A stretch of DNA of 64,000 bases from Caldisericota bacterium (lineage in GTDB: Bacteria; Caldisericota; Caldisericia; JAAYUI01), in assembly GCA_029548865.1 (NCBI GenBank), contig JAKPMO010000024.1, positions 99,256 through 163,255 of the forward strand, read 5' to 3'. How positions within the stretch are numbered: the first letter of the stretch is position 1; each line of letters begins with the position of its first letter. Shown here piece after piece: positions 18,697 through 61,588 of this stretch. The notes beneath the pieces are model-generated. The model had not been told where the DNA came from. It did no database searches and saw only the letters and a program-made list of their open reading frames with translations. The position numbers were made by a program, and so were the translations under genes.

Positions 18697-18789
18697 GTTT
18701 ACCCCAACAGAACCAGGTTGTCTTCTTTTTAGTATCTGCTAAAATAATTCCAGATATCATTCATGCATGTGCAATGGGGAGGTCATGCG

Positions 18790-40442: not shown

Positions 40443-40958
40443 ATGATCGAATGTCCCGTTTGCGGCAGAGCAAACCTTGGTGGTGTTTTGTGTTGCGAAT
40501 CGTGCGGAGCAAAGCTCGAGCAGAAAGATGAACATTTTGAAAATGTCCTCCAGAACCCGAACCTGATAAGGTTCCCGCACCCTCCAAGCACTGTAACTTC
40601 ATCGCATCCTGCCATCAAAACACAGGTGGAGATGGTTGGAAGGTTAGCACTTAATGACGAGCACCAGTTCATCCTTGATGGCAAAAACGAATATCTGATA
40701 GGCAGAGCTGACAAATTGGCAGGGATAGTTCCTGAGATCGACCTTACTAATTTCGACAAGGAGATGGTAACATCAAGAAGGCACGCCTGTGTGACAAAAA
40801 AAGGCGACTCATACATAATTGAAGATCTTGGCTCAACAAATTTTACCTATCTGAATGGAAGAATGCTCTCCCCAAAAACCCCCACAAAGCTTGATGACGG
40901 GGACGTTATCAGGATAGGAAAAGTTTATCTGGTGTTTTCAAGAATAAAGAAAAACTAG
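40443..40958 (+). CDS. Zinc-ribbon + FHA domain protein
   Basis: N-terminal CPVCGRANLGGVLCCESCG zinc ribbon. FHA core YLIGRADK...SRRHACV...EDLGSTNFTYLNGRML...GDVIRIG. Confidence 0.8.
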   Translation: MIECPVCGRANLGGVLCCESCGAKLEQKDEHFENVLQNPNLIRFPHPPSTVTSSHPAIKTQVEMVGRLALNDEHQFILDGKNEYLIGRADKLAGIVPEIDLTNFDKEMVTSRRHACVTKKGDSYIIEDLGSTNFTYLNGRMLSPKTPTKLDDGDVIRIGKVYLVFSRIKKN

Positions 40959-40979
40959 GATTTTTATTGGAGGAAACCT

Positions 40980-43385
40980 TTGGAAAACAGGGTTATAGTC
41001 AAGAAATACAAATTGCTTGAACCTCTGGCATCTGGTGGAATGGCAACTGTTCACTTGGCAAAAAATCTTGCCACAGACGAGATTGTCGTGGCAAAAATAC
41101 CCAATTTCTCGGGGCTTCCAAATAAGGAAAAGTTCGAAAGAAGGTTTCTGAGAGAAGCCCAGATACTCTCAAAAATAAACAGCAGGTATGTTGTCAAAAT
41201 ACATGATTTTGGCAAAGAGGAGTCAACTGGAGAGTACTTCCTTATTCTAGAATACCTCCATGGCAAAACACTCGAGGAGATAGCTCAAGGGAAAGAAAGG
41301 ATTCCAGTTCCAACAGTTGTTGACCTCACAATGCAAATTGCAGAGGTACTGGGTGACCTGCACGATCAAGGAGTTGTCCACAGGGACATAAAAAGCTCCA
41401 ACATCAAAATATCTTCCGAAGGCAACATCAAGCTCTTCGATTTTGGAATAAGCAAGGGCGAGGACCTCCCAAGCATGACCAGGTCTTCTGACTTCCTGGG
41501 AACACTCCAGTACATGTCGCCAGAGCAGACTGATGGAAGGGAAGTCGACATAAGGTCTGACATATACTCGACCGGCATCGTCATTTATGAAATGCTGTTT
41601 GGCAAGTTGCCTTTTGATGCGCCATCGCCTGTTGAAGTAATCGAAATGCAGAGACACAAACAACCAAAGATACCCCCCGAAGCCAAAGAAAGGGGCATTC
41701 CAGCTTCTCTGCTGTCCTTGATGTTCAGATGTCTTGAAAAAAATCCTGCCGACAGGTTTCAAACCCCCCAAGAGCTGGCCGCAGCATTGAGGGCAGTTTC
41801 CGAAGATTTGGGGATGACCCAATCTGAAAGGGACGCCTATAGAAAAACCAAACTCACTCAGATAGCCCTTTCTTCTCCGCAATCAACTTTTAGAACACGG
41901 GCAAGAAGAAAACAAACCATGACAATAGCCCTCACAGTCGCAGGGATTATTGCCATATCTTCAGGTATCTGGCTATCAAGGGGTTGCACAAAACCACTGG
42001 AACCAGACTTTCTGGTTGCCCAGGGCGAACTTGTGCAATACCAGATTCCGCTTGCAACACCACCTGGAACAAAAGATATAGAAGCCACAATAAGTAAGTC
42101 TCCGGATGGATTGTCAGTAAAGCTTGAAAAGCAAATGGAAAACGAGGGTGAAAATTGGGTCCTCTCAATATATTCCAACCTCACAATGCCCATAGGTGTT
42201 TATGAAATAAAGCTTGGCGTACAATACACAAGAGATAACGATCTCAAAGAAAATGAGGAGACAAGCTTCAATGTTGGGGTAATAAAAGGCAATCTTGGCA
42301 ACAAAGCAATCAGGTTGATCAGTTCGGATGAAATCCCCAACGATCCGAACTCAAAGGTCGAGAATGCCGTCAAAATCAATGGAAAAATCTTTGTGCCTGT
42401 TGAAACAATTGCATCAGGGACAAAAGCTCAGACCGAATGGGACAGGGAATCCGGAAAGCTGACATACTGGACCCCAGACAAGACAATCGAGCTCAAAAAA
42501 GGTGAAAAAACTCTGAAAGAAAATGGCTCGGAGAAGCCATTGAATGAAGCGCCTGTTGTGCTCAATGACTCAATGATGGTCTCCGGTAATGTTGCCGAAA
42601 CGTACATGGACACAGCTGTGACATCAAAAAATGATTCTGAAATTGAATTGACATTCAAACAGTCCACGCCTGGCTCAAAAATTTCAATAAGCACCAAAGA
42701 CGAAAAGGGCAATGACATCAAAGGCGCAATTGTATTGATAAACCAGAACTACAAGGGCAAAACACCAATAAAAATAGAACTTCCGAATGGCGTCTACCAG
42801 ATAAAGATACAAATGGGCGGTTTTAACGATATAAACGACGAGATAAAACTTGTGACAACCAAAACCCTTGATTTGAGCTATCCACTGGTCGCAATACAGC
42901 AAAAACCGCCAGAGCAGGAAAAGAAACCGCCAGTAGAAACGAAACCCAAGCAAAACGGGTTTCTTGATCTTAGCGTCAATGTCCCATGGGGCTCTTTCAT
43001 TGTTGACGGAAAAACCCAGCAAAATATTACAAGCCTTTCACTGGAGCTTGCACCGGGCAAACACAAGGTTGTATACAGGCTAAAAGATTTCCCCGACCAG
43101 ACAAAAGATGTCCAGATCGAACCAGGGCGAAGAAACTCAGTCAAATTCCAGATTTCCTCAGGCATCCTCAAGGTGACATGCAATGTGGTAGGCATTGTAT
43201 ACATAGACAACATTGAGTTCTCGGACAGGATTTTCACAAGTCCCAAGGAACCATACATAAGGGAAGTGGCCGCAAAAACGTATATAATCCGCGTCGACAA
43301 AAGTGGATACAAGATGCAGACGAAATCTGTAAAAGTTGAGCCTGGCAAAACCACAACAGTGGAGTTTAACCTGGAACCAAAATGA
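40980..43385 (+). CDS. Hanks-type Ser/Thr protein kinase with TM segment and extracellular CuAO-N-like + PEGA domains
   Basis: TTG start 5 nt after GGAGGA. Kinase motifs ASGGMATVH, HRDIKSSNIKI, DFGISK, SPEQ. One TM helix (~res 305-325). Ectodomain carries a CuAO-N-like segment (KINGKIFVPVETIA...) and two PEGA-like modules (LPNGVYQIKI; LAPGKHKVVY). Confidence 0.85.
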   Translation: MENRVIVKKYKLLEPLASGGMATVHLAKNLATDEIVVAKIPNFSGLPNKEKFERRFLREAQILSKINSRYVVKIHDFGKEESTGEYFLILEYLHGKTLEEIAQGKERIPVPTVVDLTMQIAEVLGDLHDQGVVHRDIKSSNIKISSEGNIKLFDFGISKGEDLPSMTRSSDFLGTLQYMSPEQTDGREVDIRSDIYSTGIVIYEMLFGKLPFDAPSPVEVIEMQRHKQPKIPPEAKERGIPASLLSLMFRCLEKNPADRFQTPQELAAALRAVSEDLGMTQSERDAYRKTKLTQIALSSPQSTFRTRARRKQTMTIALTVAGIIAISSGIWLSRGCTKPLEPDFLVAQGELVQYQIPLATPPGTKDIEATISKSPDGLSVKLEKQMENEGENWVLSIYSNLTMPIGVYEIKLGVQYTRDNDLKENEETSFNVGVIKGNLGNKAIRLISSDEIPNDPNSKVENAVKINGKIFVPVETIASGTKAQTEWDRESGKLTYWTPDKTIELKKGEKTLKENGSEKPLNEAPVVLNDSMMVSGNVAETYMDTAVTSKNDSEIELTFKQSTPGSKISISTKDEKGNDIKGAIVLINQNYKGKTPIKIELPNGVYQIKIQMGGFNDINDEIKLVTTKTLDLSYPLVAIQQKPPEQEKKPPVETKPKQNGFLDLSVNVPWGSFIVDGKTQQNITSLSLELAPGKHKVVYRLKDFPDQTKDVQIEPGRRNSVKFQISSGILKVTCNVVGIVYIDNIEFSDRIFTSPKEPYIREVAAKTYIIRVDKSGYKMQTKSVKVEPGKTTTVEFNLEPK

Positions 43386-46045
43386 GAAGAAACTTTCTTC
43401 TATTAGCAGTTATTTCATGTCTCTTTGCAACGGGTATATCACTTGCCAAACCATCTTTCGACTGGTGGCCAATGATAGGGCATGACAATCTTAAAAGTGG
43501 TATAAGCAAGGATAATTATCTCCCTTTCACGCTACCTTTTAGTGAAAGCAAAAAGGGGTCCTGGGACGTATCACTTTCAAATCTCGGTGGGCTGGGAACA
43601 CCGGTCGTAAAAGATGGAGTTTTATATATTGTCCAACAGGGTTTTTACGACAAAAGGAGTGGCAATAGGCAAGAGGGAACTCTCAGACAGTATGACATAT
43701 TTACCGGGAACCTTCTCCTAGAACAAACTTTCAATGCCGTGGATGTACCAGAGCCAGGAGTGGTTGGGAGTCCTGCCATCTGGGGAGGAAATGAAGAAAA
43801 AACAGTCGTGGTTGGAGATTATCTTGGAAACATAGTCTATTTCAGGGGTATTTTCCCAAAAAAACTTGTTGATGCAGGCGGGGAGAGAACACCAATCACT
43901 TCGTCGCCAACCATATACGACAATACCTGTTACATTGGTTCCGATTCAGGAAATGTCTATGCCTTCGATCTTGCCGAATTAAGAATAACAGATTCATTCA
44001 AGGCAAAAGGAAAGATAACAACTTCGCCATCTGCGTTGAAAGATCTCATTGTTTTTGGCGATGATTCGGGGAGTTTTTTTGCATACAACAGAAAAACCGG
44101 CAAGCAGATCATAAATGCCCAGCCATCAACAAGAGATGACATATCAATAACTTCATCATCATGTATTACTGAATCACAAGGAAAAACATATGCGATTTTT
44201 GGTTCCTCAAAAGGTTTTGTGCACCGAATAACAATAGGCGGAAGTAATATCGGGCAAATTGTAAGTTTCAGGACAAGCCCCGACAGGAGAACACAGAGGC
44301 CAACTTTCTGGGCAACGCCAACCGTTGTGGATGACCAGATTTATGCAGGCGCAGACGATGGCAACTTGTACAGAATAGACCTGGGAACAATGAAATCGGC
44401 CGGAATGATAGATTTGAAAAATCCAATTTTTGCGCAAGCAACCTCGGCAGGCAAATACCTCTATGTTTGCACTGCATCGCTTGACAGCGAAGAAAATCCT
44501 GCCAGAGAGGGAAGCCTGTATACAATTGATCTTGATACATTCACAATCAATCAAACCAATGACAGTGGTATTGAGATCAAGGGTGGCTCCCTCACACAAC
44601 CGGTGATAGCTGGCGGATATATGTTTGTGGCCTCCAGGTCGGGCAAAATTTACCGTTTTGAGGGCGCCAGGCCACAGCTAATGGTTTCACCAACCCAAAT
44701 CAATTTTGGTACCATAAAATTCGGCACAGCAGGACAAAAGGATATTGTCATTAGTAATAATGGTCCTGGCGACCCGCCACTTGTCGGTGAAATCCTGGTG
44801 GATGAACAGTCGAAACTATGGCTTTCAGTCGACAAGTCGGAGTTCAAAACTTCTGGAGAAACAAAATTAACAGTAAAAGCAAGTTCTTCTAATATCAAAG
44901 ACATCAGGGAGACAGAGTATTCAGGCACTATAAGTATTGAAACCAACGCCGGAATACAAACCATTGAAGTAAAAGCAACTTTTGCGCCTGATTTGCCAAG
45001 AATACAAGTCTCAAGCTCCCAAATTGATTTCATGGACACATACAGAGGACGAAAAAATTTGAGAGAGTTTACTGTAAGCCTGGCAAAAGGATCAATGGCA
45101 ACTCTTGATTTCAAACCCTCCGAAAACTGGCTCGAATGCTCTCCACAATCAGCAACCCTCTCTGAAGGGAAAAAAAGCATAAAAATATCAGTGACTGCTT
45201 CAACTGAGAACCTTCCCATAGGGAAATATGCGGCAACAATCCAGATCGGGGACCAGAAAACAATTGCCAATCCAGTCACACTGCCAGTAACAATCAATGT
45301 TGTTCCCCAACCTGCAAGACCGAGCATAGTTAACTCCTCAGTAGAAGTTGTTTTCCAGGACTGTTTTGTGGACAAACCAAAAGAAGCGGTCTTCCAGATA
45401 CTAAACTCCGGCGACAATGATTTGAAGGAGGGCATAAAACCAATACTTTCAACCTCGTGGCTTTCAAACCCGCGCTTTGTCAAAAACAAAGGTAATTCAT
45501 GGCTATACATATGCACGATCTCACCTTCAACATTCTGGCCAAATCAACAATATACAGCATCTATCAACACCATGATAAGCTCGACGCCAATTACGCTAAA
45601 AATTACTGTAAAAACAATGCACATACCCGAATGCAAGATAGAATTTTCAATAGGATCAAAGCAGTACATTGTGAATGGAAGATCTCTACCAATGGATGCT
45701 CCGCCTTATGTTTCCAAAAATGGCAGCACTATGGTTCCAATCAGATATATAGGGGACCCACTTGGTTATTTCTACAAAGCACAGACGGAATGGGTAAAAG
45801 AGCTGAAAACGGTATTGTTTACGCTGGCTGGAACAACACTAAGGCTCATAGTGGACTACCAGAATGCCATAGTGGAAAGGGCCGATGGCTCCATAGACAC
45901 GGTAAAACTGGCTTCTCCCCCAGAGATAAAAAATGGCAGGACATTCATCCCGCCAAGAATTATTGGTGAAACGTTTGGTGCAAAAATATCTTGGGACGAC
46001 AGAACCAGAAAAGCCACCCTCGTATTTAACCAACCACCACCCTGA
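43382..46045 (+). CDS. Secreted PQQ-like beta-propeller protein with C-terminal CuAO-N-like domain
   Basis: 4-nt overlap with kinase gene. Signal peptide MRRNFLLLAVISCLFATGISLA. Repeated propeller-blade motifs (G.vYa.D...G) and Ig-like middle region. C-terminus IVNGRSLPMDAPPYV..GSTMVPIRYI...TFIPPRIIGETFGAKISWD is CuAO-N-like. Confidence 0.7.
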   Translation: MRRNFLLLAVISCLFATGISLAKPSFDWWPMIGHDNLKSGISKDNYLPFTLPFSESKKGSWDVSLSNLGGLGTPVVKDGVLYIVQQGFYDKRSGNRQEGTLRQYDIFTGNLLLEQTFNAVDVPEPGVVGSPAIWGGNEEKTVVVGDYLGNIVYFRGIFPKKLVDAGGERTPITSSPTIYDNTCYIGSDSGNVYAFDLAELRITDSFKAKGKITTSPSALKDLIVFGDDSGSFFAYNRKTGKQIINAQPSTRDDISITSSSCITESQGKTYAIFGSSKGFVHRITIGGSNIGQIVSFRTSPDRRTQRPTFWATPTVVDDQIYAGADDGNLYRIDLGTMKSAGMIDLKNPIFAQATSAGKYLYVCTASLDSEENPAREGSLYTIDLDTFTINQTNDSGIEIKGGSLTQPVIAGGYMFVASRSGKIYRFEGARPQLMVSPTQINFGTIKFGTAGQKDIVISNNGPGDPPLVGEILVDEQSKLWLSVDKSEFKTSGETKLTVKASSSNIKDIRETEYSGTISIETNAGIQTIEVKATFAPDLPRIQVSSSQIDFMDTYRGRKNLREFTVSLAKGSMATLDFKPSENWLECSPQSATLSEGKKSIKISVTASTENLPIGKYAATIQIGDQKTIANPVTLPVTINVVPQPARPSIVNSSVEVVFQDCFVDKPKEAVFQILNSGDNDLKEGIKPILSTSWLSNPRFVKNKGNSWLYICTISPSTFWPNQQYTASINTMISSTPITLKITVKTMHIPECKIEFSIGSKQYIVNGRSLPMDAPPYVSKNGSTMVPIRYIGDPLGYFYKAQTEWVKELKTVLFTLAGTTLRLIVDYQNAIVERADGSIDTVKLASPPEIKNGRTFIPPRIIGETFGAKISWDDRTRKATLVFNQPPP

Positions 46046-46134
46046 TCAAACCAGGAAAATAACGTCTCCCAGTCTCATTAGAACTCACCCAAAAATAACT
46101 TGAATGCAACCTAACATTTCATATATTCGAAATC

Positions 46135-46476
46135 ATGAAATATTTGGATGAAGAAAATGAAAGAGAACTTCAGGAAATTTCAGACATATTCTCGGCTCTG
46201 TCTTCCCCAAAGAGGCTCAAAATAATCTCCTTAATCGAAGATGGACCCTTATCAGTCACTGAAATAGCCCAGAAAATGAAGTGCAGGCCACCATGTGTTT
46301 CACAACACCTCTCGGTTCTCAAATCATGCAAAATAGTTGATTGTGAGAGAACTGGTCATGAAATGGTCTACAAATTGGCACTTTCGTGCGTCAAATCATT
46401 CATATCTTGTCTGCTAGGAAAATGTGATAGCAACGATTCTGGGTGTTCAATTGTAAAATCAGTCCATGCAAAATAA
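46135..46476 (+). CDS. arsR: ArsR/SmtB-family transcriptional regulator
   Basis: Winged-HTH LSALSSPKRLKIISLIEDGPLSVTEIAQKMKCRPPCVSQHLSVLK with Cys residues for metalloid sensing. 113 aa. Confidence 0.8.
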   Translation: MKYLDEENERELQEISDIFSALSSPKRLKIISLIEDGPLSVTEIAQKMKCRPPCVSQHLSVLKSCKIVDCERTGHEMVYKLALSCVKSFISCLLGKCDSNDSGCSIVKSVHAK

Positions 46477-46493
46477 CAAAACAGGAGGAAATG

Positions 46494-46733
46494 ATGAAAA
46501 TACAAGTGCTAGGAATGGGATGCGCAAAATGCCACTCCCTCGAAGCAAATGTCAGAGAAGCTGTTGCAAAGATGGGCATCGATGCTGAAATTGAGCCAAT
46601 CAAGGACATACAGAAAATCGTCGAGATGGGTGTTATGGCAACACCAGCAATCGCAATTGATGGAAAAGTTGTCTCTTCAGGAAGGATGCTCTCTCCATCG
46701 CAGATAACGGAGCTCATAAAACAAAACCAATAA
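46494..46733 (+). CDS. Redox-active disulfide protein 2 (small thioredoxin-fold protein, TIGR00412-like)
   Basis: AGGAGG RBS. MKIQVLGMGCAKCHSLEANVREA...GVMATPAIAIDGKVVSSG matches the ~78-aa CxxC family often found in ars operons. ATG at 46491 also possible. Confidence 0.8.
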   Translation: MKIQVLGMGCAKCHSLEANVREAVAKMGIDAEIEPIKDIQKIVEMGVMATPAIAIDGKVVSSGRMLSPSQITELIKQNQ

Positions 46734-48217
46734 TGAAGAATACAACAAAAATTCTCCTTTCCATACTTGTGCTCGTGATTGCCATTGTGAATACAAACGC
46801 GATGTTTCAACCAGGAATACCTGACAATGGTCTGGTAGCAAACGATGATTGGGCCTCATCTCCACAGTCGCAAGTCTGGGAAAAACAGTTGCAAACAGAT
46901 ATCGTCTCCGGACCCGTTTTTATCGGCTCAAGAGTAGCTGTGGCGCTTGGAAACTCGCAAGTAAATGCTTTCAGCATCTATTCAGGAAAGCTGGCCTGGT
47001 CATACAAGCTTGACCAGAAACCAAACCAGATAGCCTCAGGTAGTGATTCGGTTTTTGTCAAAACAGCCAGGCAGGTCACTTCCATTGGAGATGGCGGGCA
47101 AAAAAACTGGATATTCCAGACAGAGGCGAACATAACTACGGATTTGGCAATCCTTGGCAATATGCTATTTTTTGGGTGTGCTGACGGGAATTTCTACTGT
47201 GTTAACACCAAAAATGGCAAAAAAATCTGGCTATCTGCTTTCAAGTCAATACCAAATATAGGCCCGAAAATGCTTGGTGAAGATTACCTGTTTTTTGCAT
47301 CCACAGACAAAAAGCTCTATTGCCTCAACACATCGTCAGGAAAACAGAAGTGGGAACTTGCCCTGGATGACTCGCCAGAATGGATTTTTGCCGACCAGAA
47401 CAGGGTACTTGCGCAAGAAGGCAAATATCTTTTTGCAATCGAGGCCCAAAGCGGAAACCCAAGATGGAAATATGAAACAGGCACTGGCTCTTTACAGGCG
47501 GTTTCGTCAAAAGGCAAGTTTTTTGTCACGACTCCGGCTTTGGCGATAGATTGCTTTGATGCCAACTTCTTTGGCAAGGCATGCTGTATATCGACAGGCA
47601 AAAGATTGTGGCTGTCACAACTGGATTCTTTCCCGACAACAAGATTGTTCTGTTCCGAAGAAACAATTTTTGTCCCAAAAGGCAACTTGATTGAAAAAAT
47701 ATCTGTGGCTGATGGCTCAAAACAGGGCAATATCACGCTTGACAAGAAGATTGAATCGATTGACCTGCAAGGAGACAACATTGCAATAATCTCTGGGAAC
47801 ACGATTTCCCTCTTCAATAAAGTGCCGGAAAAAATCACATTCGTGGTTGGACAAAAAGAACTGGGCAGAGATTCTTTTGCTGTTGAGATGGACGTTGCAC
47901 CAGTCATAATTGATGGTAAATCATTCCTGCCAGCAAGGTATGTTTGCGAACCTTTTGGCGGCTCGGTCTCATGGGACCAGGGATCAAAAAAGACAACTTG
48001 CCAGCTGAATGGCAAAACATTGAGTCTATGGGTCGGGAAAAATACCGCCAGAACAAGCGGCGGTGACAAGCAGATCGACAGCAACCCCAAAATAATCCCA
48101 TTCATACAAAATGGAAGAGTAATGCTACCAATGAGATTTTTAGCAGAATCACTTGGATTAAAAGTAGGCTATGAAAACAAAAAGATAAGTATTGAAAATG
48201 AAAGAGGCCAAAAATGA
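46733..48217 (+). CDS. Secreted PQQ-like beta-propeller protein with C-terminal CuAO-N-like domain (shorter paralogue of 43382..46045)
   Basis: TAATG coupling to the upstream gene. Signal peptide MKNTTKILLSILVLVIAIVNTNA. Blade motifs (NGKKIWL; SGKQKWEL; GNPRWKY; GKRLWLS). C-terminus IIDGKSFLPARYVCEPFGGSVSWD...GRVMLPMRFLAESLGLKV. Confidence 0.7.
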   Translation: MKNTTKILLSILVLVIAIVNTNAMFQPGIPDNGLVANDDWASSPQSQVWEKQLQTDIVSGPVFIGSRVAVALGNSQVNAFSIYSGKLAWSYKLDQKPNQIASGSDSVFVKTARQVTSIGDGGQKNWIFQTEANITTDLAILGNMLFFGCADGNFYCVNTKNGKKIWLSAFKSIPNIGPKMLGEDYLFFASTDKKLYCLNTSSGKQKWELALDDSPEWIFADQNRVLAQEGKYLFAIEAQSGNPRWKYETGTGSLQAVSSKGKFFVTTPALAIDCFDANFFGKACCISTGKRLWLSQLDSFPTTRLFCSEETIFVPKGNLIEKISVADGSKQGNITLDKKIESIDLQGDNIAIISGNTISLFNKVPEKITFVVGQKELGRDSFAVEMDVAPVIIDGKSFLPARYVCEPFGGSVSWDQGSKKTTCQLNGKTLSLWVGKNTARTSGGDKQIDSNPKIIPFIQNGRVMLPMRFLAESLGLKVGYENKKISIENERGQK

Positions 48218-48636
48218 GAAGAAACATTTTATCAAGCTTTGTTTTATTGGCGGTTTTTGCAGGCTCCATTTTTCTAGCATCATGTGGAAGCAATGGGAAT
48301 CTTCCTTGTGTTAGTGAGGGGGAAACTGGTAATGGCACCATTTCGATCAAAAATGATTCTGGAATGCCAATGGTGGTCAAGGTTGGAAGGGCAACCTGCA
48401 AACCCTGCATAGTAATGACAGACACAGTCAATGAGATCGGCAAGGAGCTTGAAGGAAAAATCCAGATCGCAATTGTCGACATTGACGAAGACCCTGAAGC
48501 AGTGGAGAAGTTTCAGATACAGGGTATTCCAACAACATTCGTATTTGATGCGTCAGGCAACCAGACTTTCAGGAAAACCGGCATCGCAACAAAGGATGAG
48601 CTTGTAAGTGAGCTCAAGAAAGCAGGAATGCAGTGA
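48214..48636 (+). CDS. Thioredoxin-fold lipoprotein (TlpA/ResA-like)
   Basis: Lipobox LASCGS. CxxC as ATCKPC. Thioredoxin-fold spacing of the downstream Pro (GIPTTFVF). Confidence 0.7.
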   Translation: MRRNILSSFVLLAVFAGSIFLASCGSNGNLPCVSEGETGNGTISIKNDSGMPMVVKVGRATCKPCIVMTDTVNEIGKELEGKIQIAIVDIDEDPEAVEKFQIQGIPTTFVFDASGNQTFRKTGIATKDELVSELKKAGMQ

Positions 48637-49037
48637 AAAACAATATCACAAACACAATCATTCTTGTCATAGTGGCCCTTGCCGCACTGGGTCTTCTATC
48701 GTACAAACTCTTTTTCGAGAAGGGATCCGATTTTCCAAAACCTCAAAAAGGTGAGGTCACAATCGTCGAGCTTGGGGCAGACCTTTGTGAACCATGCACA
48801 AAACTCCGCCCCATAATGGAAGACCTGAAAAAAGAACTTGAGGGAAAAGCTGTTCTAAACAGCCTTCTTATAGATAATTCAATGAAATCTTTCTACAACG
48901 TGAAAGTAATCCCGGTCATCATCATCTTCGACAAAGAAGCAAATGAGGTAGCTAGAAGAATATTTTCACTTGAAGAAGTAGATGATGCCAGAAACTGGAT
49001 AAAAGAGAAAACTGAACCCCTGGGGGTGCAGTGGTGA
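48633..49037 (+). CDS. Membrane-anchored thioredoxin-fold protein
   Basis: N-terminal TM helix then GADLCEPCTKLRP (CxxC) and the VIPVIIIF cis-Pro region. 4-nt overlap on each side. Confidence 0.7.
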   Translation: MKNNITNTIILVIVALAALGLLSYKLFFEKGSDFPKPQKGEVTIVELGADLCEPCTKLRPIMEDLKKELEGKAVLNSLLIDNSMKSFYNVKVIPVIIIFDKEANEVARRIFSLEEVDDARNWIKEKTEPLGVQW

Positions 49038-49717
49038 TCGAGTCCCTCCTCCAGTCAATACAAAGCAACCCCTGGATTGCACCATTTACGGTGTTTTTCA
49101 CCGGGTTTCTCACGGCTTCCAATCCTTGCGTTCTTGGCATGATACCCCTCATGATCGGGGCATCAGGGGCATACCAGGGCGAAGACAAGTCCTACTGGAA
49201 AGCTGCAAAGTTCTCTCTGCTATTTGTCCTCGGCCAGTCAATCTCTTTCATGGTGCTGGGGATAATCGCAGCACTCATTGGTCAGCAGGCAACGCTGACC
49301 GGCCCCTGGTGGACATACTTCATGGCTTTCCTCTGCATTCTGATGGGACTAATGTTCGCTGATATAGTCAAATTCAACATCCCAGTGCCAAAGATACTGA
49401 CAAAACCAAGAACAGGGCTCTTCGGGGCTTTTATCCTGGGCGTTCTTTTTGGCTTTGTCTCAACACCCTGTGCTGTACCGATTCTTTCAGTATTGCTCGC
49501 TTTGATAGCAACAGGCGGAAACACATATTTTGGCGGCCTTCTCCTGCTCTGCTATGCCCTCGGGCATTCAGCTCTTCTTCTTGTGGCAGGCATCTCGATA
49601 GGTGCCGCGCAGGCCTTCATAAACAATCGGAACTTGAGAACAACTTCTCTTGTTCTCAGAAAAGTATTTGGACTTCTAATCATCGGCTTTGGGTTCTACC
49701 TGCTCTATATAGCCTAA
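49031..49717 (+). CDS. ccdA: Cytochrome c biogenesis/thiol-disulfide transporter CcdA (DsbD TM-domain family)
   Basis: Six TM helices. First Cys in NPCVLGMIPLMIG, second in STPCAVPIL. This is a DsbD_2 signature. Confidence 0.8.
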   Translation: MVIESLLQSIQSNPWIAPFTVFFTGFLTASNPCVLGMIPLMIGASGAYQGEDKSYWKAAKFSLLFVLGQSISFMVLGIIAALIGQQATLTGPWWTYFMAFLCILMGLMFADIVKFNIPVPKILTKPRTGLFGAFILGVLFGFVSTPCAVPILSVLLALIATGGNTYFGGLLLLCYALGHSALLLVAGISIGAAQAFINNRNLRTTSLVLRKVFGLLIIGFGFYLLYIA

Positions 49718-49732
49718 ATTTCTGGAGGAAAA

Positions 49733-50701
49733 ATGGACATCTTCGCACCAGTAAACTGGTTTGCAAAATGGCTCACATACGACATTTTCAGAATACAGCA
49801 CGAATCACTGCTTGGAGAAGCTGTCAGTTTCTTTGTTTTTGACACCATAAAAGTCTTCATGCTTCTCATCGCAATCATATTTGTGGTTTCCTACCTGAGA
49901 ACATACCTGCCACCAGAGAAAGTCCGGTTCTTTATCTCAAAGAGAAACAAAATAACTGGACACATTATGGCTGCAGCCTTCGGTATCATAACGCCATTTT
50001 GCACCTGCAGTGCGATCCCGCTCTTTCTGGGCTTCCTGGAAGCCGGTGTCCCGCTTGGCGTGACATTCTCATTCCTCATAGCCTCGCCAATGATAAACGA
50101 GGTGGCACTGGTAATGCTCCTTGGCATGTTTGGGTGGAAGGTGGCTCTGATTTACATTGCATCAGGAATGATAATTGCCATTGTGTCAGGACTCGTCATC
50201 GGCCAGCTCAAGGTGGAAAACCTGGTCCAGCAATTTGGGACCGGGAAAAAAGCCTGTGCCTGCGCAGAAGATGGGATGCCTCTAAAAGCAAAGGACAGGG
50301 CATCATACGCCTGGAGCTATGTTGTGGATGTCCTAAAAAAGGTTTGGCCATTCATCGTTGGCGGAATAGCTGTCGGGGCCTGGATACATGGTTATGTTCC
50401 TGTTGACTTCATGGCAAAAATTGCCGGTGGAAACAACTGGTGGGCAGTTCCAGTAGCCACGCTGATCGGGATTCCCCTTTACAGCAATGCCGCAGGCATC
50501 ATCCCGCTTGTTTCTGTTCTTACAGAAAAGGGCGTCAGCCTCGGGACAACCCTTGCCTTCATGATGGCTGTTACCGGCCTTTCGCTCCCCGAGTTCCTGA
50601 TCCTGAGGACCGTCATGAAAACCAAACTAATCCTTATTTTCGCTGGCATTGTTGGTATCGGGATAATCCTCACAGGCTATCTGTTCAACGCAATATTGTA
50701 G
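49733..50701 (+). CDS. arsP: ArsP-like permease (DUF318/COG0701), putative trivalent organoarsenical efflux
   Basis: Polytopic membrane protein with the family-specific TPFCTCSAIP motif (the TPFcSCS motif of ArsP) in the first half. Confidence 0.75.
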   Translation: MDIFAPVNWFAKWLTYDIFRIQHESLLGEAVSFFVFDTIKVFMLLIAIIFVVSYLRTYLPPEKVRFFISKRNKITGHIMAAAFGIITPFCTCSAIPLFLGFLEAGVPLGVTFSFLIASPMINEVALVMLLGMFGWKVALIYIASGMIIAIVSGLVIGQLKVENLVQQFGTGKKACACAEDGMPLKAKDRASYAWSYVVDVLKKVWPFIVGGIAVGAWIHGYVPVDFMAKIAGGNNWWAVPVATLIGIPLYSNAAGIIPLVSVLTEKGVSLGTTLAFMMAVTGLSLPEFLILRTVMKTKLILIFAGIVGIGIILTGYLFNAIL

Positions 50702-50717
50702 AAAAAGGGACTCAAAC

Positions 50718-51785
50718 ATGAGTGATACAACTGAACCAAAATTGTCTCTTCTGGACAAGCTTTTACCCCTCTGGATAGTGGCCGCAATGCTTCTGGGGGT
50801 GGCCATCGGTAAACTGTTTCCATCCCTTGGACCGGTGTTGAACTCGATAAAAATCGCCGATGTTTCACTGCCAATAGCCATTGGCCTCCTCTGGATGATG
50901 TATCCAGTATTGACAAAAGTAAAATACGAAAAGATCTCCAGTTTGGTATCCAACAAAAAAATATTCTCATACTCGATTGTATTAACCTGGGTCATAGGCC
51001 CCGCCCTAATGTTTGGGCTAGCATGGCTAATGCTTCCAGATATGCCAGAGTACAGAACAGGGATAATCCTCGTAGGATTGGCACCTTGCATTGCAATGGT
51101 GCTCGTCTGGAACATGCTGGCCAAAGGAAGCGGTGAAATAGCAGCAATTCTTGTGGCCATAAATTCAGTTATCCAGATATTCATGTATTCAGTTCTCGGA
51201 TTCTTCTATCTCGAAGTTTTGCCTGGATGGCTTGGCCTCAACCAGACGCAAATACAGATTTCAATGTGGCAAATAGCAAAAAGCGTTCTCATTTATCTTG
51301 GCATACCGCTTCTTGCAGGCTACCTTACCAGAAAAATCCTGATCCAGAAAAAAGGTGAGGCATGGTTTGAAAAACACTTTTTGCCAAAGTTGTCACCAAC
51401 AGCACTTGTGGCATTGCTTTACACAATCGTTCTCATGTTCTCAATGCAGGGTGAAAAAATCATTTCTTTGCCATTTGACGTATTGAGGATTGCACTACCT
51501 CTTCTGTGCTACTTCCTTATTATGTGGTTCGGCACATTCTTTGGAGCAAAAACACTAAAATTCAATTACAGTGAATCGGCATCGGTGGCATTCACTGCCG
51601 CTGGGAACAATTTTGAACTGGCAATCGCGGTTTCGGCAGGAATTTTTGGCATTGCCTCCGGGCAGGCGCTGGCAGCTGTTGTTGGGCCACTCATTGAAGT
51701 TCCGATCCTTGTTTCGCTTGTGTATGTCTCGCTTTGGGCGCAAAGATTTTTCAAGGAAAGATCTGCTAACTCGGCATTGGGTTAA
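50718..51785 (+). CDS. acr3: Arsenite efflux transporter ACR3
   Basis: LSLLDKLLPLWIVAAMLLGVAIG N-terminus and 10-TM BART-superfamily profile. 355 aa. Confidence 0.9.
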   Translation: MSDTTEPKLSLLDKLLPLWIVAAMLLGVAIGKLFPSLGPVLNSIKIADVSLPIAIGLLWMMYPVLTKVKYEKISSLVSNKKIFSYSIVLTWVIGPALMFGLAWLMLPDMPEYRTGIILVGLAPCIAMVLVWNMLAKGSGEIAAILVAINSVIQIFMYSVLGFFYLEVLPGWLGLNQTQIQISMWQIAKSVLIYLGIPLLAGYLTRKILIQKKGEAWFEKHFLPKLSPTALVALLYTIVLMFSMQGEKIISLPFDVLRIALPLLCYFLIMWFGTFFGAKTLKFNYSESASVAFTAAGNNFELAIAVSAGIFGIASGQALAAVVGPLIEVPILVSLVYVSLWAQRFFKERSANSALG

Positions 51786-53131: not shown

Positions 53132-56100
53132 CTATTTGATATGGATAACTCTGGACTGTCTTGCTGATCTACCAAAGGAATCAACGCAGGTTATCAGGAC
53201 CTCAAAATCACCCTGACTTGAATAGGAATTCTCAAAACTGACCAGATTGTCTTTGCTCTGTATCGTTTTGGTGGATTTGGTTCCATTGCCCCAATTCACT
53301 GTGATTTCATATGGTGGGGCCCCACCCTCGACGGAGAGGTCAAGTTTTATTTCTTCATTTACTCTTGCTTCGTTTGTCTTTGTATTAATACCCTTCCAAG
53401 TTGCGTCAAGAACAATCTCTTTCGTCGGTGGCTGTTTGCAAACACTTATCGTGGCATAATCTGTGACTGCTTCTGCGGAATCGGACACAGCGCTGGCCTT
53501 GTTGGTTATCGTCAGACAATTTCCGGCGAAAGACAAGGATTTTGCAAGACTGAATTTCAGCAAATAGGTCTTTGACTGACCCGGTGACAAACTCCCAACC
53601 TGGTACCTGATTTTGGAAGGGCCAGCAGCGCCGGACGGGAGTGAAGAAACATATTTGAGCTCCCTTGGGAAAACATCATCGAGAACAACGTTTGTGGCAT
53701 CAAGATTGCCGATATTTCTGATGGTTATCTGGAACGCAAATATGTCATCAATGTTGTACTGGAAAGCTTTTGCTTTCTTTGTGACTTCCAGAATAGCTTT
53801 TTTTACAGGTTTTTTTGTGTTGACTGCAACATTGTTTGACAACGCCGGCACTCCCTGGTCCAGTGCGTGCCTTGAAAAAGCCTGGTTGTTTATCTGTGAA
53901 TCTACCGGTGTTTCTTCAACTATTGCAGAAAAACCGAACGAACGCGGTGCCGTGGGTGGGAGATATTTTATAAGCGAGGCCGTGTAAAGATCAGGTGTTT
54001 GATTGTACCACCCAATGAACGGCTCATCGAAATTGTCCTCCATTGCCATTGATACGGCATTGGCAAAATTTGTATACTGTGCGTCAAACCCTCCACCGGT
54101 ATAGGCATTTGCACCGGTGATCGGGTCGAATGGCTGCTTGTTTCCCCCAATCCACCTTGTTCCGTCCCATCTGGCAAAATATATACCCCTGTTTCCGGCA
54201 ATGTTGCCCCACCAGGAAACACACTGGTTGCCAGTTTTATCAACATCTATGCACGTTATTTTAGCCGCAAGGCGCGTTGGGCTGGATGGCCCTCCACCAA
54301 TAACAGCATTCATAGCAACGATGCCATTGGCACCAGTCGCCGGATTATAAGGCATTCCATTGGCCCCAACCCATTGGGTGCCATCCCATTTTACAGAAAC
54401 TATTGCAGTCCCGCCATAAGAGTAGTCGTGCCAGACAATGTTCGGGTTGTCGAATCCATCCAGGCAAAGTGAAGGATAGCTCGAATAGCCACCGTTTCTG
54501 CTAACATTTGCATTTGCGCCGGTGACCGGATCATAGGGGAGACCATTTGCTCCAACCCAGGTGGCGCCATTCCATTTGATGTACACAACATCATAGCCAC
54601 CATAGGAACCTTCTGACCATGAAACACACGGATTTCCAGAACTGTCAAGCCTCAAGACTGGAAATTCCGAGCTGCTGCTTGTTTTGCTTATATCAGCATT
54701 TGCGCCATTATATGGAACACCCTGCACGTTTACCCAGGCAGTTCCATCCCATTTCAGGAAATTGACATCAAAGCTGTATGGAGGCCCGTAATAGTCATAC
54801 CAAACGAGGTTTGGGTTGTTCTGGCCATCTATTGCAAGGGAAACACCGTAAGAAGTGCTTGGCGTATTGCTCACATTGGCATTGGAGCCATCATACTGCT
54901 CGCCCTGAGCATTGACCCACATGTAACCATTCCATCTTACAAAGAATATGTCCCAGCTTGAAACAACGTCCGGGTGGATTTTCTCGCCCCAGGCAATGCA
55001 CGGATACCCATATTTATCAATTGCCAGCGAGGCACCATCTGAATCAGTAATGCTCTTGCTCACATTGGCATTTGCACCGGTCAGCGGATCGTAGGGCTGG
55101 CCATTCACACCAACCCACCTGGCGCCGTCCCATTTAACAAAAAATATGTCATACCTGAAATCATCATGGCCAACATAATCTGAAAATGCCAGGCAAGGAC
55201 GCCCATTAGGACCAAGCGCAAGCGAAACCTGGGCAGCAGTGCCGCTCACAAGCGCATTGTCTGCTACAGGGTCAAAAGGGATGTTGTCGGCTGTGGTCCA
55301 CCCTTGCGGTATTGGCCCCCAGCGAAGCATTGTTCCTGCCTGCGAACCATCCGGTGGCTCTCCAGGGGTCCAGCTCGAACCATTGTCCGTGGAGTATGAA
55401 AGGTCATTGAGCGGGGTTGCGCTCCCCGCAAGATAGTGCGTTCCAGCAGGGACTGTATCATAAACATAAGGGTCAATTAGAGGATCGTTGTTTGGATTGT
55501 TAAAGCTCCAGTCAATCTTGTAATGGAGTGTATCCCCTACCTTCACCTGCTTGCCTGAGTCGTCATATGCACCATCTCCATTTGTGTCCACTGATTTCGT
55601 GATGGTGAAACTGCCGTCGAAACTTGATGTCCACCTGGTAAATAAGATCTCAGGATCACCAGAAGTGTAGTCCATCCATGCAATGCAGGGGTTGCCTGAC
55701 GGGTCAATGGCAAGAGAAGACGAATATGAATCTCCTGAATTGTTGCTCACATTTCCGTTTGTGGCAGTTAGTGCTGCACCTGAAACATTCACCCATGAGG
55801 AGCCGTTCCACCTGGCAAATAAGATCTCATAATTGCCAAGTGTATTATCGTACCATGTAATGCAGGGATTGCCAGAAGGATCGAGAGTAAGACTAGGATA
55901 CCATGAATATCCCGAATTATTGCTTACGTTCCCGTTGGTGGCTGTAAGTGTTGTACCTGAAACATTCACCCATGAGGATCCATTCCATCTGGAAAAAAAG
56001 ATCTCATAATTGCCAGGGGTGTTGTCACACCATGCGATACAGGGGTCGCCAGATGGATCGAGAGTAAGAATAAGATACCATGAACATCCCGAATTACTGC

Positions 56101-56968
56101 TTACATTGCTATTTGTAGCTGTAAGTACTACTCCAGATGCATTGACCCATGATGCGCCATTCCATCTAGTAAAGAAGATTTCGTAATTGCCTGGTGTGTT
56201 GTCCTCCCACGCAATGCAGGGGTTGCCAGAAGGATCAAGAGCAAGGGAAGGATACTCTGACCACCCTGAATTGTTGCTCACATTGGCATTGGTTGCCGTG
56301 ATTATGGCACCCGAAACATTCACCCATGAGAAGCCATTCCATCTGGCAAAGAAGATTTCATCATTGCCAGGGGTGCGGTCTGTCCATGCAATGCAAGGGT
56401 TACTGGAGGAGTCTAGGACAAGGGAAGGCCCATATGAATCTCCTGAATTATTGCTTACGTTCCCATTGGTGGCTGTAAGTGTTGCACCCGAAACATTCAC
56501 CCATGAGGAGCCATTCCATCTGGCAAAAAAGATTTCAGAATTGCCAGGGGTGTAGTCGCTCCATACAATGCAAGGGTTACTGGAGGAATCTAGGGCAAGG
56601 AAAGGCCGATATGAACCTCCTGAATTGTTGCTCACATTGGCATTGGTTGCCGTGAGCGTTGCACCTGAAGCATTCACCCATGAGGAGCCATTCCATCTGG
56701 CAAAGAAGATTTCATCATTGCCTGGTGTGTTGTCTTCCCACGCAATGCAGGGGTTGCCAGAAGGATCAAGAGCAAGGGAAGGACCCCATGAACCTCCTGA
56801 ATTGTTGCTCACGCTTATGTCTATTGGCTGTGGGTTTGCATTTCCAATATATGGTGATCCACCGGCGCCAACCCATCCAACCACTGCCTCTGCCGTCTTT
56901 GGTGCAGGTACAACTGCAAAGCAAGCAAACATAATCGATACAGCAAGCAAAACCCTAATCATCTTCAT
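53132..56968 (-). CDS. Giant secreted repeat protein: ~7 near-identical 60-aa blade repeats + ~7 degenerate 65-70-aa repeats, DUF11-like and PKD/Ig-like C-terminal domains
   Basis: Signal peptide MKMIRVLLAVSIMFACFAVVPAPKTAEA. Repeat unit NVSNNSG.S..PSLALDPSGNPCIAW.D.TPGN.EIFFARWNGSSWVNVSGATLTATN. Second series has ...W.G..WVG.NG.PYDP.TGANA. C-terminus LDATNVVLDDVFPRELKYV (DUF11-like) and a PKD-like final module. Confidence 0.8.
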   Translation of the reverse strand: MKMIRVLLAVSIMFACFAVVPAPKTAEAVVGWVGAGGSPYIGNANPQPIDISVSNNSGGSWGPSLALDPSGNPCIAWEDNTPGNDEIFFARWNGSSWVNASGATLTATNANVSNNSGGSYRPFLALDSSSNPCIVWSDYTPGNSEIFFARWNGSSWVNVSGATLTATNGNVSNNSGDSYGPSLVLDSSSNPCIAWTDRTPGNDEIFFARWNGFSWVNVSGAIITATNANVSNNSGWSEYPSLALDPSGNPCIAWEDNTPGNYEIFFTRWNGASWVNASGVVLTATNSNVSSNSGCSWYLILTLDPSGDPCIAWCDNTPGNYEIFFSRWNGSSWVNVSGTTLTATNGNVSNNSGYSWYPSLTLDPSGNPCITWYDNTLGNYEILFARWNGSSWVNVSGAALTATNGNVSNNSGDSYSSSLAIDPSGNPCIAWMDYTSGDPEILFTRWTSSFDGSFTITKSVDTNGDGAYDDSGKQVKVGDTLHYKIDWSFNNPNNDPLIDPYVYDTVPAGTHYLAGSATPLNDLSYSTDNGSSWTPGEPPDGSQAGTMLRWGPIPQGWTTADNIPFDPVADNALVSGTAAQVSLALGPNGRPCLAFSDYVGHDDFRYDIFFVKWDGARWVGVNGQPYDPLTGANANVSKSITDSDGASLAIDKYGYPCIAWGEKIHPDVVSSWDIFFVRWNGYMWVNAQGEQYDGSNANVSNTPSTSYGVSLAIDGQNNPNLVWYDYYGPPYSFDVNFLKWDGTAWVNVQGVPYNGANADISKTSSSSEFPVLRLDSSGNPCVSWSEGSYGGYDVVYIKWNGATWVGANGLPYDPVTGANANVSRNGGYSSYPSLCLDGFDNPNIVWHDYSYGGTAIVSVKWDGTQWVGANGMPYNPATGANGIVAMNAVIGGGPSSPTRLAAKITCIDVDKTGNQCVSWWGNIAGNRGIYFARWDGTRWIGGNKQPFDPITGANAYTGGGFDAQYTNFANAVSMAMEDNFDEPFIGWYNQTPDLYTASLIKYLPPTAPRSFGFSAIVEETPVDSQINNQAFSRHALDQGVPALSNNVAVNTKKPVKKAILEVTKKAKAFQYNIDDIFAFQITIRNIGNLDATNVVLDDVFPRELKYVSSLPSGAAGPSKIRYQVGSLSPGQSKTYLLKFSLAKSLSFAGNCLTITNKASAVSDSAEAVTDYATISVCKQPPTKEIVLDATWKGINTKTNEARVNEEIKLDLSVEGGAPPYEITVNWGNGTKSTKTIQSKDNLVSFENSYSSQGDFEVLITCVDSFGRSARQSRVIHIK
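55400..56850. repeat. Tandem ~180-bp coding repeats (about 7-8 copies, >85-95% nucleotide identity) inside the giant protein gene
   Basis: Recurring cattcacccatgaggagccattccatctggcaaagaagatttcat at ~55789, 55965, 56140, 56318, 56498 and 56678 (period 176-180 bp). Also visible as repeated peptides in the spurious plus-strand ORFs 56187..56555 and 56568..57074. Confidence 0.8.
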
Positions 56969-57070
56969 GGCTTCTACTCCCTCGAGCAAGCATGTAATTA
57001 ACCAAAAGGCAATGTTACTCTTCTATCGTTATAAGTCAAACAACCATATTATTTATAATATATGTAAAAA

Positions 57071-59984: not shown

Positions 59985-60108
59985 GCTCCTCCTTTAGCTA
60001 AAAGTTTCCTTTTCCATGGCCTCAGTGTTCTTAGATTGAGAGACGGATTTTTCCCACACTCTCCTACTTGTTTTTTTGGAACTATCAGATCTTCGAGAAT
60101 TTATAATA

Positions 60109-61362: not shown

Positions 61363-61588
61363 TTTATCAGTACCTCCTCTTCATGTTCTCTGTTATGATT
61401 TTATACCACTGTCAAGGTATTGGTTTTTTGTAGTTCTTGCCAACTTTGCTTTTTGCAGAAACGGTACCTTTGAGAGAATGCATAGTATACCTATCATCAT
61501 TACCGTTAGTTGTGACTATAAGATCATCAATTGTTTTCCCAAGATTTTCAAAAGCTTTTCCAAAAGCATTCTGTGAGGATTTATGACA

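Follow-up and report, generated by a model that had tools for sequence, protein, structure and literature searches.

Standard models of arsenic resistance are cytoplasmic, with reduction of the arsenical followed by pumping. CcdA-dependent systems with a co-encoded client are known from Streptococcus pneumoniae (CcdA-Etrx-MsrAB2) and Bacillus subtilis (CcdA-ResA/StoA), and in Bradyrhizobium TlpA (CVPC) keeps the metal-binding cysteines of ScoI and CoxB reduced. The Scs copper tolerance system of Salmonella and Proteus pairs the DsbD-like ScsB with the thioredoxin-like ScsC and ScsD and protects envelope thiols, and the ArsD-ArsA metallochaperone pair and the vicinal cysteines of MerP/MerT exemplify cysteine pairs or triads that bind and hand over soft metal(loid)s. 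An ArsEFG system is reported from Shewanella putrefaciens (Chen, Zhang, and Rosen, 2019), and its proteins have NCBIfam names. Here we analyze an eight-gene ars-type cluster in a 64,000-nucleotide (nt) stretch of Caldisericota DNA (GenBank assembly GCA_029548865.1, contig JAKPMO010000024.1, positions 99,256–163,255 of the forward strand; hereafter the window, numbered from its first letter), in which genes for a CxxC protein (Trx_3), a β-propeller, two thioredoxins (Trx) with export signals, and the membrane thiol-disulfide transporter CcdA are placed between arsR and two efflux permease genes.

The presence of CcdA, a thioredoxin, and a protein named “redox-active disulfide protein 2” in ars clusters was noted in a bioinformatic survey, which found eight instances in seven organisms, seven of the eight with arsC (Castillo and Saier, 2010; PMC2963123). 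CcdA was proposed to move electrons across the membrane and a link with ArsC was guessed, with the remark that transmembrane electron flow would be odd for a cytoplasmic enzyme (Castillo and Saier, 2010; PMC2963123). In the searchable literature we found no functional study of the Trx_3/CcdA/exported-thioredoxin arm of ars clusters; the core gene combination is thus a known but uncharacterized association.

Results

The Thioredoxin/CcdA Block Is an Integral Part of ars-Type Clusters

Eight consecutive open reading frames (ORFs) on the + strand, from 46135 to 51785, are tightly packed in the order arsR, trx3, propeller, trxL, trxM, ccdA, arsP, and acr3 (Table 1). Profile searches bore out all eight gene calls of an earlier note, which had been made from the letters of the window without database searches, including the ArsP_1, TIGR00412, PF13386, and PQQ_2 assignments. 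The note’s short overlaps of 1–7 nt at most junctions were likewise seen, at four of the seven (trx3/propeller, 1 nt; propeller/trxL, 4 nt; trxL/trxM, 4 nt; trxM/ccdA, 7 nt); the other three (arsR/trx3, ccdA/arsP, and arsP/acr3) have gaps of 14–16 nt.

The CcdA alignment was scanned against one genome per GTDB species, which yielded 80 loci, the ORFs of which were classified with purpose-built profiles; partner counts refer to those 42 loci of other phyla that had sufficient sequence on either side, and to genes within 7 kb of CcdA. The closest CcdA relatives (45%–96% identical) are from Caldisericia, Aminicenantes/Acidobacteriota, Desulfobacterota/Syntrophia, WOR-3, Stahlbacteria, Planctomycetota, Gemmatimonadota, Myxococcota, and others. 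A gene order ArsR > ArsP_1 > Trx_3 > Trx > CcdA > Acr3, often with an LMWP-type arsC in addition, recurs in at least eight phyla (e.g. loci L023, L025, L031, L034–L036, L066, L070, L072, and L090). ArsR and Trx_3 each accompany CcdA in 39/42 loci, a thioredoxin in 38, Acr3 in 33, ArsP_1 in 32, and LMWP-type ArsC in 19; at least one of ArsP_1, Acr3, and ArsC is present in 40/42, and the propeller in none. In a separate tblastn census, the gene directly upstream of CcdA codes for a thioredoxin at 48 of the 61 loci of other phyla and at all 11 loci of Caldisericia; the one directly downstream codes for Acr3 at 38 of 54 loci. As a control, a Trx-CcdA pair from Acetoanaerobium noterae (37% identical) has no ars genes nearby; it was the best match in a search of a plasmid collection, which returned only distant CcdA genes (≤37% identity). 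The interleaving of these genes in at least eight phyla establishes the thioredoxin and CcdA genes as an integral part of the ars cluster. The earlier note had not recognized the gene combination as a described system; the six-gene core recurs in dozens of species, and the association had been reported in the 2010 survey (PMC2963123).

No arsC, arsA, or arsD was found within the operon, and the sole match to the arsC profile across the 64-kb window was a spurious one of 23 bits to Acr3 itself. The absence of a reductase claimed in the earlier note therefore holds for the operon and the window, but not as a defining trait, since arsC is present in the 19 loci counted above, in seven of the eight instances of the 2010 survey, and, after acr3, in two Caldisericales relatives (L014 and L015). 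Absence of arsC is a trait of the copy in the window lineage, not of the system. Specific to Caldisericia are the propeller, one or more additional thioredoxins with export signals, and an ArsR that has no CVC motif.

Gene content varies around this core. The metagenome-assembled genome (MAG) CAZTGD01 (Caldisericales) has two paralogous ArsR-ArsP-Trx_3-Trx-(propeller)-Trx-CcdA clusters (L018 and L020), neither with Acr3. In other phyla, the canonical clusters often include additional conserved genes (L008, L009, L010, L032, L052, L061, L077, and L082). These encode a PF04060 Fe-S protein between ArsP_1 and Trx_3, a split ArsP_1 pair (about 160 + 170 residues) directly ahead of the exported thioredoxin, a protein with DUF5714 downstream of CcdA that is distantly MbdU-like (68 bits), radical SAM/SPASM proteins, and ferredoxins.

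A sigma-70-like TTGAAT-16-TATATT, a consensus match only, lies ahead of arsR at 46100–46127 and is overlapped by an imperfect palindrome (46107–46150) with the core ATTTCAT (46116–46122)/ATGAAAT (46135–46141). A terminator scan of the + strand within the operon found no terminator-like sites with more than seven stem pairs. Promoter-like matches in the operon numbered 13, against 8.8 ± 3.0 in shuffles; as they are not enriched, they give no evidence for internal promoters. The gene 3′ of acr3 is convergent. At least five independent public contigs, among them one of MAG GCA_017992475.1, carry the identical cluster; public sources assign the host to Caldisericia/Caldisericales, and several MAG and contig names refer to anaerobic or sludge digesters.

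Components of the Proposed Thiol Relay

Trx_3 matches the structure of MTH895 (PDB 1ILO; 75 bits, E = 3e-20), has no signal peptide, implying a cytoplasmic location, and has a CxxC motif that is invariant in the alignment. The start of its gene is an ATG at 46491 or 46494 behind AGGAGGA, and not the GTG at 46443. Because Trx_3 accompanies CcdA so regularly, and is retained with Trx-CcdA in seven loci that lack ArsP_1, we propose that it is the cytoplasmic partner of CcdA.

In nearly all loci, the thioredoxin encoded just upstream of CcdA starts either with a short charged stretch and a hydrophobic helix or with a lipobox. The active site reads CIPC in most phyla and CxPC in Caldisericia; an anchor or lipobox together with CxPC is the signature expected of an exported reducing thioredoxin. 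In the window, trxM occupies the place ahead of CcdA that in other phyla belongs to the one exported CIPC thioredoxin, and is by position its ortholog. Clusters from Caldisericia encode two or three exported thioredoxins (two in the window), whereas those from other phyla usually encode one. The lipoprotein TrxL has the lipobox LASC (Cys24) and an additional cysteine, Cys32, in an LPCVS motif common to several Caldisericia orthologs. A third cysteine is found in the exported thioredoxins of some Caldisericia, either in LPCVS near the mature N-terminus, as in the window lineage, or in a C-terminal GCEV or EC (L019–L021); combined with CxPC it would form a three-thiol site.

In CcdA, Cys33 (SNPCVL) and Cys147 (STPCAVP) are invariant in 15 homologs, and a CcdA profile aligned both with the structure of Thermus thermophilus CcdA (PDB 5VKV; E = 3e-13). 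Single-sequence PDB searches with CcdA, ArsP, and Acr3 gave no match; only the CcdA profile reached 5VKV. The CcdA-like protein was also compared with ArsG, an identity that was rejected (NF040495, 37.8 bits versus a cut-off of 200; 42.9 bits for a relative from another phylum); DsbD models score the protein at 61–82 bits, above the ArsG score. Transfer of electrons from CcdA to the exported thioredoxin is suggested only by the adjacency of their genes.

A Caldisericia-Specific Propeller with an Invariant Cysteine Loop

The propeller is encoded at eight of ten Caldisericia species loci, versus none of the 42 from other phyla. The earlier note had described it as a propeller with a CuAO-N anchor; the domain call stands, but Cu_amine_oxidN1 is located at the C-terminus (residues 383–487). 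Its orthologs are just 25%–33% identical (56%–71% for CcdA), yet the loop Cys274-x9-Cys284-Cys285 is invariant. The FFGKACC segment of the loop is an insertion, which is missing in propeller paralogs that lie outside the cluster in Caldisericia and are not associated with ars genes. The family is small, with 38 matches among 5.8 billion proteins. An exhaustive profile search of 1.84 billion representatives gave seven full-length single-stretch matches among the best 150; the loop is present in all six of these that were aligned or read, the seventh (P0126) coming from the alignment with invariant loop cysteines. It is likewise present in orthologs P0174, P0191, P0201, and P0206, and in two further contexts, reached from the propeller side, the propeller gene again lies among the thioredoxin genes of the cluster.

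The AlphaFold2 model of the propeller (pLDDT 86.9) has eight blades and a C-terminal domain. Its top Foldseek neighbors are BamB, tetrathionate hydrolase, and YxaL, generic matches of 12%–20% identity; likeness to the BamB fold is strong, at E of about 1e-17 and 12%–14% identity. BamB itself was rejected as an identity (TIGR03300, 70.8 versus 285 bits; PRK11138, 47.8 versus 423), as was a PQQ dehydrogenase (TIGR03075, 31 versus 480; TIGR03074, 16 versus 833; PF01011, 22 versus 26.7). It is a propeller of the PQQ_2 type and shows no sign of a cofactor.

In its reduced form, the C-x9-CC loop is a plausible S2/S3 site for R-As(III) or As(III). For ArsI and the MAs(III)-selective ArsR, the MAs(III) sites are reported to be vicinal cysteine pairs (as cited in PMC6514093).

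Efflux Permeases and the ArsR Repressor

The ArsP_1 permease of the window covers 293 of 294 positions of PF03773 and has ITPFCTCSAI at residues 86–95. We distinguish two types in these clusters: the usual ArsR-adjacent permease before Trx_3 is type B, with the motif [IV]L[AS]VCSCT, and type A has TPFC[ST]CS. The CxC pair of TPFCxC presumably corresponds to the cysteine pair of Campylobacter jejuni ArsP. In the window, type A is placed after CcdA instead of type B before Trx_3. A related Caldisericia MAG (L006; CcdA 71% identical) keeps type B in the usual position without type A, so that the window lineage has swapped permeases. The type-A protein is 50%–56% identical to copies in ars clusters of other phyla (Aminicenantes and others) with the same motif, and probably exports trivalent organoarsenicals. 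The protein reaches the cut-off of no NCBIfam equivalog model (SaoE, 123 versus 325 bits; SO_0444, 94 versus 300). Also within the ArsP_1 family are the Cu/Zn exporter SO_0444 and the metal exporter SaoE, with a CSC motif (bioRxiv 10.1101/2022.07.06.499078).

The ArsR of the window lacks the canonical As(III) CVC site: the alignment has LSVTEIA where canonical clusters show xCVCE, the classic As(III) motif, which is present in the ArsRs of canonical clusters of other phyla. Caldisericia ArsR orthologs conserve Cys50-x3-Cys54 in the recognition helix together with Cys85 and Cys92, an arrangement that is reminiscent of CmtR-type sites and may form an S3 site of another kind. Matches to the CmtR (35 bits) and BigR models were weak.

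Table 1. Features of the ars-Type Cluster in the Window
Feature	Position	Strand	Evidence
Candidate arsR promoter/operator	46100–46150	+	Consensus matches only
ArsR/SmtB-family repressor, 113 residues, first gene	46135–46476	+	PF01022, 46 bits; NF033788, 78 versus cut-off 55
Trx_3, TIGR00412 “MTH895/ArsE family”, 80 residues, active site CAKC	46491–46733	+	101 bits versus cut-off 62
Secreted/anchored 8-bladed PQQ_2/BamB-like β-propeller, 494 residues, N-terminal signal/anchor	46733–48217	+	PQQ_2, 83 bits; Cu_amine_oxidN1, 93 bits
Propeller cysteine loop Cys274-x9-Cys284-Cys285, DCFDANFFGKACC	47552–47587	+	Ortholog alignments
Thioredoxin lipoprotein (trxL), 140 residues, PF00085, active site CKPC	48214–48636	+	Profile match, lipobox
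Membrane-anchored thioredoxin (trxM), 134 residues, PF00085, CEPC, N-terminal signal-anchor helix	48633–49037	+	Profile match
CcdA/DsbD-type membrane thiol-disulfide transporter, 228 residues, alternative start 49034	49031–49717	+	PF02683, 73 bits; PF13386, 50 bits
ArsP_1-family permease, type A, motif TPFCTCS, 322 residues	49733–50701	+	PF03773, 251 bits versus cut-off 32.3
Acr3 arsenite efflux permease, 355 residues, GLAPCIAM and GPLIEVP segments	50718–51785	+	TIGR00832 equivalog, 420 bits versus 282.8

Surrounding Genes in the Window

Directly upstream of the ars-type cluster, 40443–46045 (+) encodes an FHA protein, a Ser/Thr kinase with extracellular Cu_amine_oxidN1 and PEGA domains, and an 887-residue propeller with Cu_amine_oxidN1. 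The latter was rejected as a close paralog of the cluster propeller (only Cu_amine_oxidN1 in common, 30% identity). This FHA-kinase-propeller synteny recurs in L006, L011–L013, L017, L018, L092, and L093, and not in L007, L014–L016, L019, or L020. Another large secreted protein, with Glucodextran_B and Cu_amine_oxidN1 (18763–22092, +), lies beside a 1188-residue Ser/Thr kinase-AAA-TPR protein (22105–25671, −); Cu_amine_oxidN1, which occurs in no fewer than four proteins within these 64 kb, appears to be the common surface module of the organism.

Beyond the cluster, a 1285-residue secreted protein (53132–56989, −) contains an array of 59-residue repeats (55676–56812; 177-nt period, 6.4 copies, 78% matches) of the type WNGSSWVN.SG..LTATN.NVSNNSG.S..PSLALDPSGNPCIAW. 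On near-identical contigs (L001–L004) this protein has 1122, 865, and 1278 residues, so that it looks like a hypervariable surface protein. Four tandem ORFs of 406–417 residues (57532–62833, −) have no Pfam match and are hypothetical genes on public contigs.

Discussion

We favor, as somewhat better than an even bet, the explanation that the cluster is an ArsR-controlled arsenical efflux operon in which a relay of Trx_3, CcdA, and exported thioredoxins keeps external cysteines reduced, with the propeller loop as a client. We infer that the ArsR/SmtB repressor would govern the entire unit, which would be induced by arsenic, that Acr3 would expel As(III)/Sb(III), and that the type-A ArsP would expel trivalent organoarsenicals. 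The electron source would be a CxxC protein of the cytoplasm, most likely Trx_3, which would reduce the two membrane cysteines of CcdA; these would in turn reduce the exported CxPC thioredoxins, one a lipoprotein and one membrane anchored. The relay would thereby hold envelope cysteines as dithiols during the expulsion of thiol-reactive arsenicals. In Caldisericia, it may have gained a dedicated client, the cell-surface propeller encoded among the thioredoxin genes, the C-x9-CC of which would have to stay reduced; the loop would most plausibly bind As(III)/R-As(III) on the outer side, whether to trap it, to hand it on, or to act as a shield.

Several observations weigh against this explanation. 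The benefit of extra reducing power is not obvious, as As(III) binds thiols rather than oxidizing them, and the clusters of other phyla have no obvious gene for an exported client of the relay. Trx_3 is mostly encoded directly after the type-B ArsP_1, so that it may serve the permease and not CcdA; the two roles are equally open on the evidence of gene order. Trx_3 and CcdA are present without an exported thioredoxin in four loci, and the outward orientation of TrxM is deduced from a short positively charged N-terminus followed by a hydrophobic helix. Acr3 is missing in six of ten Caldisericia clusters. Finally, the absence of CVC, together with the CmtR-like cysteine pair in the recognition helix, means that the effector of ArsR could be another soft metal.

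The earlier note allowed that the thioredoxin and CcdA genes might be a cytochrome-c maturation or sporulation locus of the ResA/StoA type that simply adjoins the ars genes. System II cytochrome-c maturation does employ CcdA and membrane-anchored CxPC thioredoxins, and CEPC is also the motif of B. subtilis ResA; however, the ResA, DsbE (CcmG), and StoA models score the thioredoxins far under their cut-offs (19.6 versus 170, 18 versus 123, and 16.6 versus 210 bits), none of the ResB/CcsB and ResC/CcsA Pfam families occurs in nine annotated contexts, and the thioredoxin and CcdA genes lie between arsR and the efflux genes, with overlapping ends in the window and in the same interleaved arrangement in at least eight phyla. 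Chance adjacency to a housekeeping locus is effectively refuted, and the block is better regarded as an integral, conserved part of an ars-type cluster. The note’s suggestion that thioredoxins, CcdA, and propeller form a separate cargo under ArsR control is disfavored because CcdA genes of this subfamily are flanked by ars genes in many phyla. We judge it unlikely that the Caldisericia system is not primarily concerned with arsenic, in which case ArsR would sense Cd, Pb, Cu, Hg, sulfane sulfur, or disulfide stress, ArsP_1 would export the sensed species, the relay would protect envelope thiols, and Acr3 would be an optional passenger. Such a role would fit an ArsR without CVC but with C-x3-C in the recognition helix and C-terminal cysteines as in CmtR-type sensors, the Caldisericia clusters that lack Acr3, including both clusters of the single MAG with L018 and L020, and the Cu/Zn and SaoE exporters with a CSC motif within the ArsP_1 family. 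Yet the window operon ends in a high-scoring Acr3 and carries a TPFCxC type-A ArsP, LMWP-type arsC is added in the related Caldisericia clusters L014 and L015, the CcdA subfamily is found with CVC-type ArsR, Acr3, and arsC in other phyla, and a trigonal three-cysteine site suits As(III) too.

Other readings assign the relay a different cargo or a different chemistry. A ligand-exchange relay, in which the CcdA-like protein would move As(III)/R-As(III) on its two membrane cysteines, with Trx_3 chaperoning arsenic in the cytoplasm and with the CC-loop propeller and exported thioredoxins accepting it outside, would be an outward counterpart of the MerP-MerT thiol relay and functionally near the DsbD-like efflux permease ArsG; we regard it as quite unlikely. 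NCBIfam has both a DsbD-fold ArsG (aromatic aminoarsenical efflux permease) and TIGR00412 as “MTH895/ArsE family”, names that give the pairing of Trx_3 with a DsbD-like protein a precedent in an arsenical resistance cluster, as far as they reveal what ArsE and ArsF do. Dithiol sites suited to R-As(III) are present in every component (CxxC, PC...PC, CxPC, and CC), four loci have ArsR-ArsP-Trx_3-CcdA without an exported thioredoxin, and the module is present in some Caldisericia clusters without Acr3. Against such a relay, the CcdA-like protein is not an ArsG equivalog, scores higher with DsbD models, and aligns with the bona fide CcdA 5VKV; the window already encodes two dedicated efflux permeases; and an exported CxPC thioredoxin that is almost always encoded directly upstream of CcdA is the arrangement classically seen in electron relays. 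Distinctly improbable is its boldest form, a “bucket brigade” in which Trx_3, CcdA, exported thioredoxin, and propeller would carry the arsenical over the membrane and park it on a surface protein, with no conventional permease; if true, it would explain the persistence of the module in clusters without Acr3 or an exported thioredoxin, and would be an efflux/sequestration route mirroring mercury uptake by MerP-MerT. It is very improbable that the exported thioredoxins and the propeller, acting as an enzyme, reduce pentavalent (organo)arsenicals or thioarsenates or transform As-S species outside the cell. The reducing relay does end at an exported protein with an invariant cysteine triad, the neighbors of the propeller fold include tetrathionate hydrolase, a cofactor-less eight-bladed enzyme acting on sulfur compounds, and the window has no cytoplasmic arsC. 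However, no benefit is obvious in making a more toxic trivalent species outside, the relay occurs in many phyla without the propeller, and often alongside cytoplasmic arsC, the fold match is generic, with BamB equally good at 12%–20% identity, and no arsenate-reductase motif is recognizable.

Trivalent and methylated arsenicals dominate in sulfidic, anoxic habitats. Dozens of uncultured anaerobes, which represent at least eight phyla, have ars clusters that encode a predicted outward thiol-reducing pathway comprising Trx_3, CcdA, and an exported CIPC thioredoxin; if this pathway protects or exploits envelope cysteines, it would add an extracytoplasmic layer to detoxification in sulfidic, anoxic digesters and sediments. 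The Caldisericia variant supplies a candidate client, a small and sharply defined propeller family with C-x9-CC, on which the gene association can be tested concretely.

Comparison with Known Systems

The nearest precedent is the group of clusters surveyed by Castillo and Saier (2010), which the window resembles in having TIGR00412, PF00085 (here twice), and PF02683 between arsR and arsP/acr3. The present census extends their eight instances to a recurrent six-gene order in many phyla. Their bioinformatic note tied the genes to cytoplasmic ArsC, whereas here arsC is absent and the CcdA-adjacent thioredoxin carries export signals. The window cluster differs further in its two exported thioredoxins, its inserted CC-loop propeller, and the type-A ArsP_1 after CcdA that replaces type B.

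With the CcdA-Etrx-MsrAB2, ResA, StoA, and TlpA systems the cluster shares a small CcdA, a lipoprotein or anchored CxPC thioredoxin, and an exported client and co-transcription (both proposed here). The clients of those systems are a methionine sulfoxide reductase, apocytochrome c, and spore or copper proteins, none of them encoded in an ars operon and none a propeller, and in contrast to the ResA/StoA systems the thioredoxins here are PF00085-type proteins far under the ResA and StoA cut-offs. Like Scs, the cluster would be a metal-stress locus that pairs a DsbD-family membrane reductase with extracytoplasmic thioredoxin-fold proteins; Scs, however, is copper responsive, has a three-domain ScsB and not a minimal CcdA, and includes neither efflux permeases nor a propeller in its operon. 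Going by NCBIfam names, ArsEFG resembles it as an arsenical resistance cluster in which a TIGR00412-type ArsE is combined with ArsG, a membrane protein of DsbD fold, but ArsG is annotated as an aromatic aminoarsenical efflux permease, whereas the CcdA here scores 37.8 versus 200 bits with the ArsG model and resembles true CcdA/DsbD. The ArsD-ArsA and Mer relays are cytoplasmic (ArsD) or inward (Mer), in contrast to the outward relay proposed here, and have no sequence relation to the propeller loop. Compared with these systems, the CC-loop propeller is a new element of the cluster.

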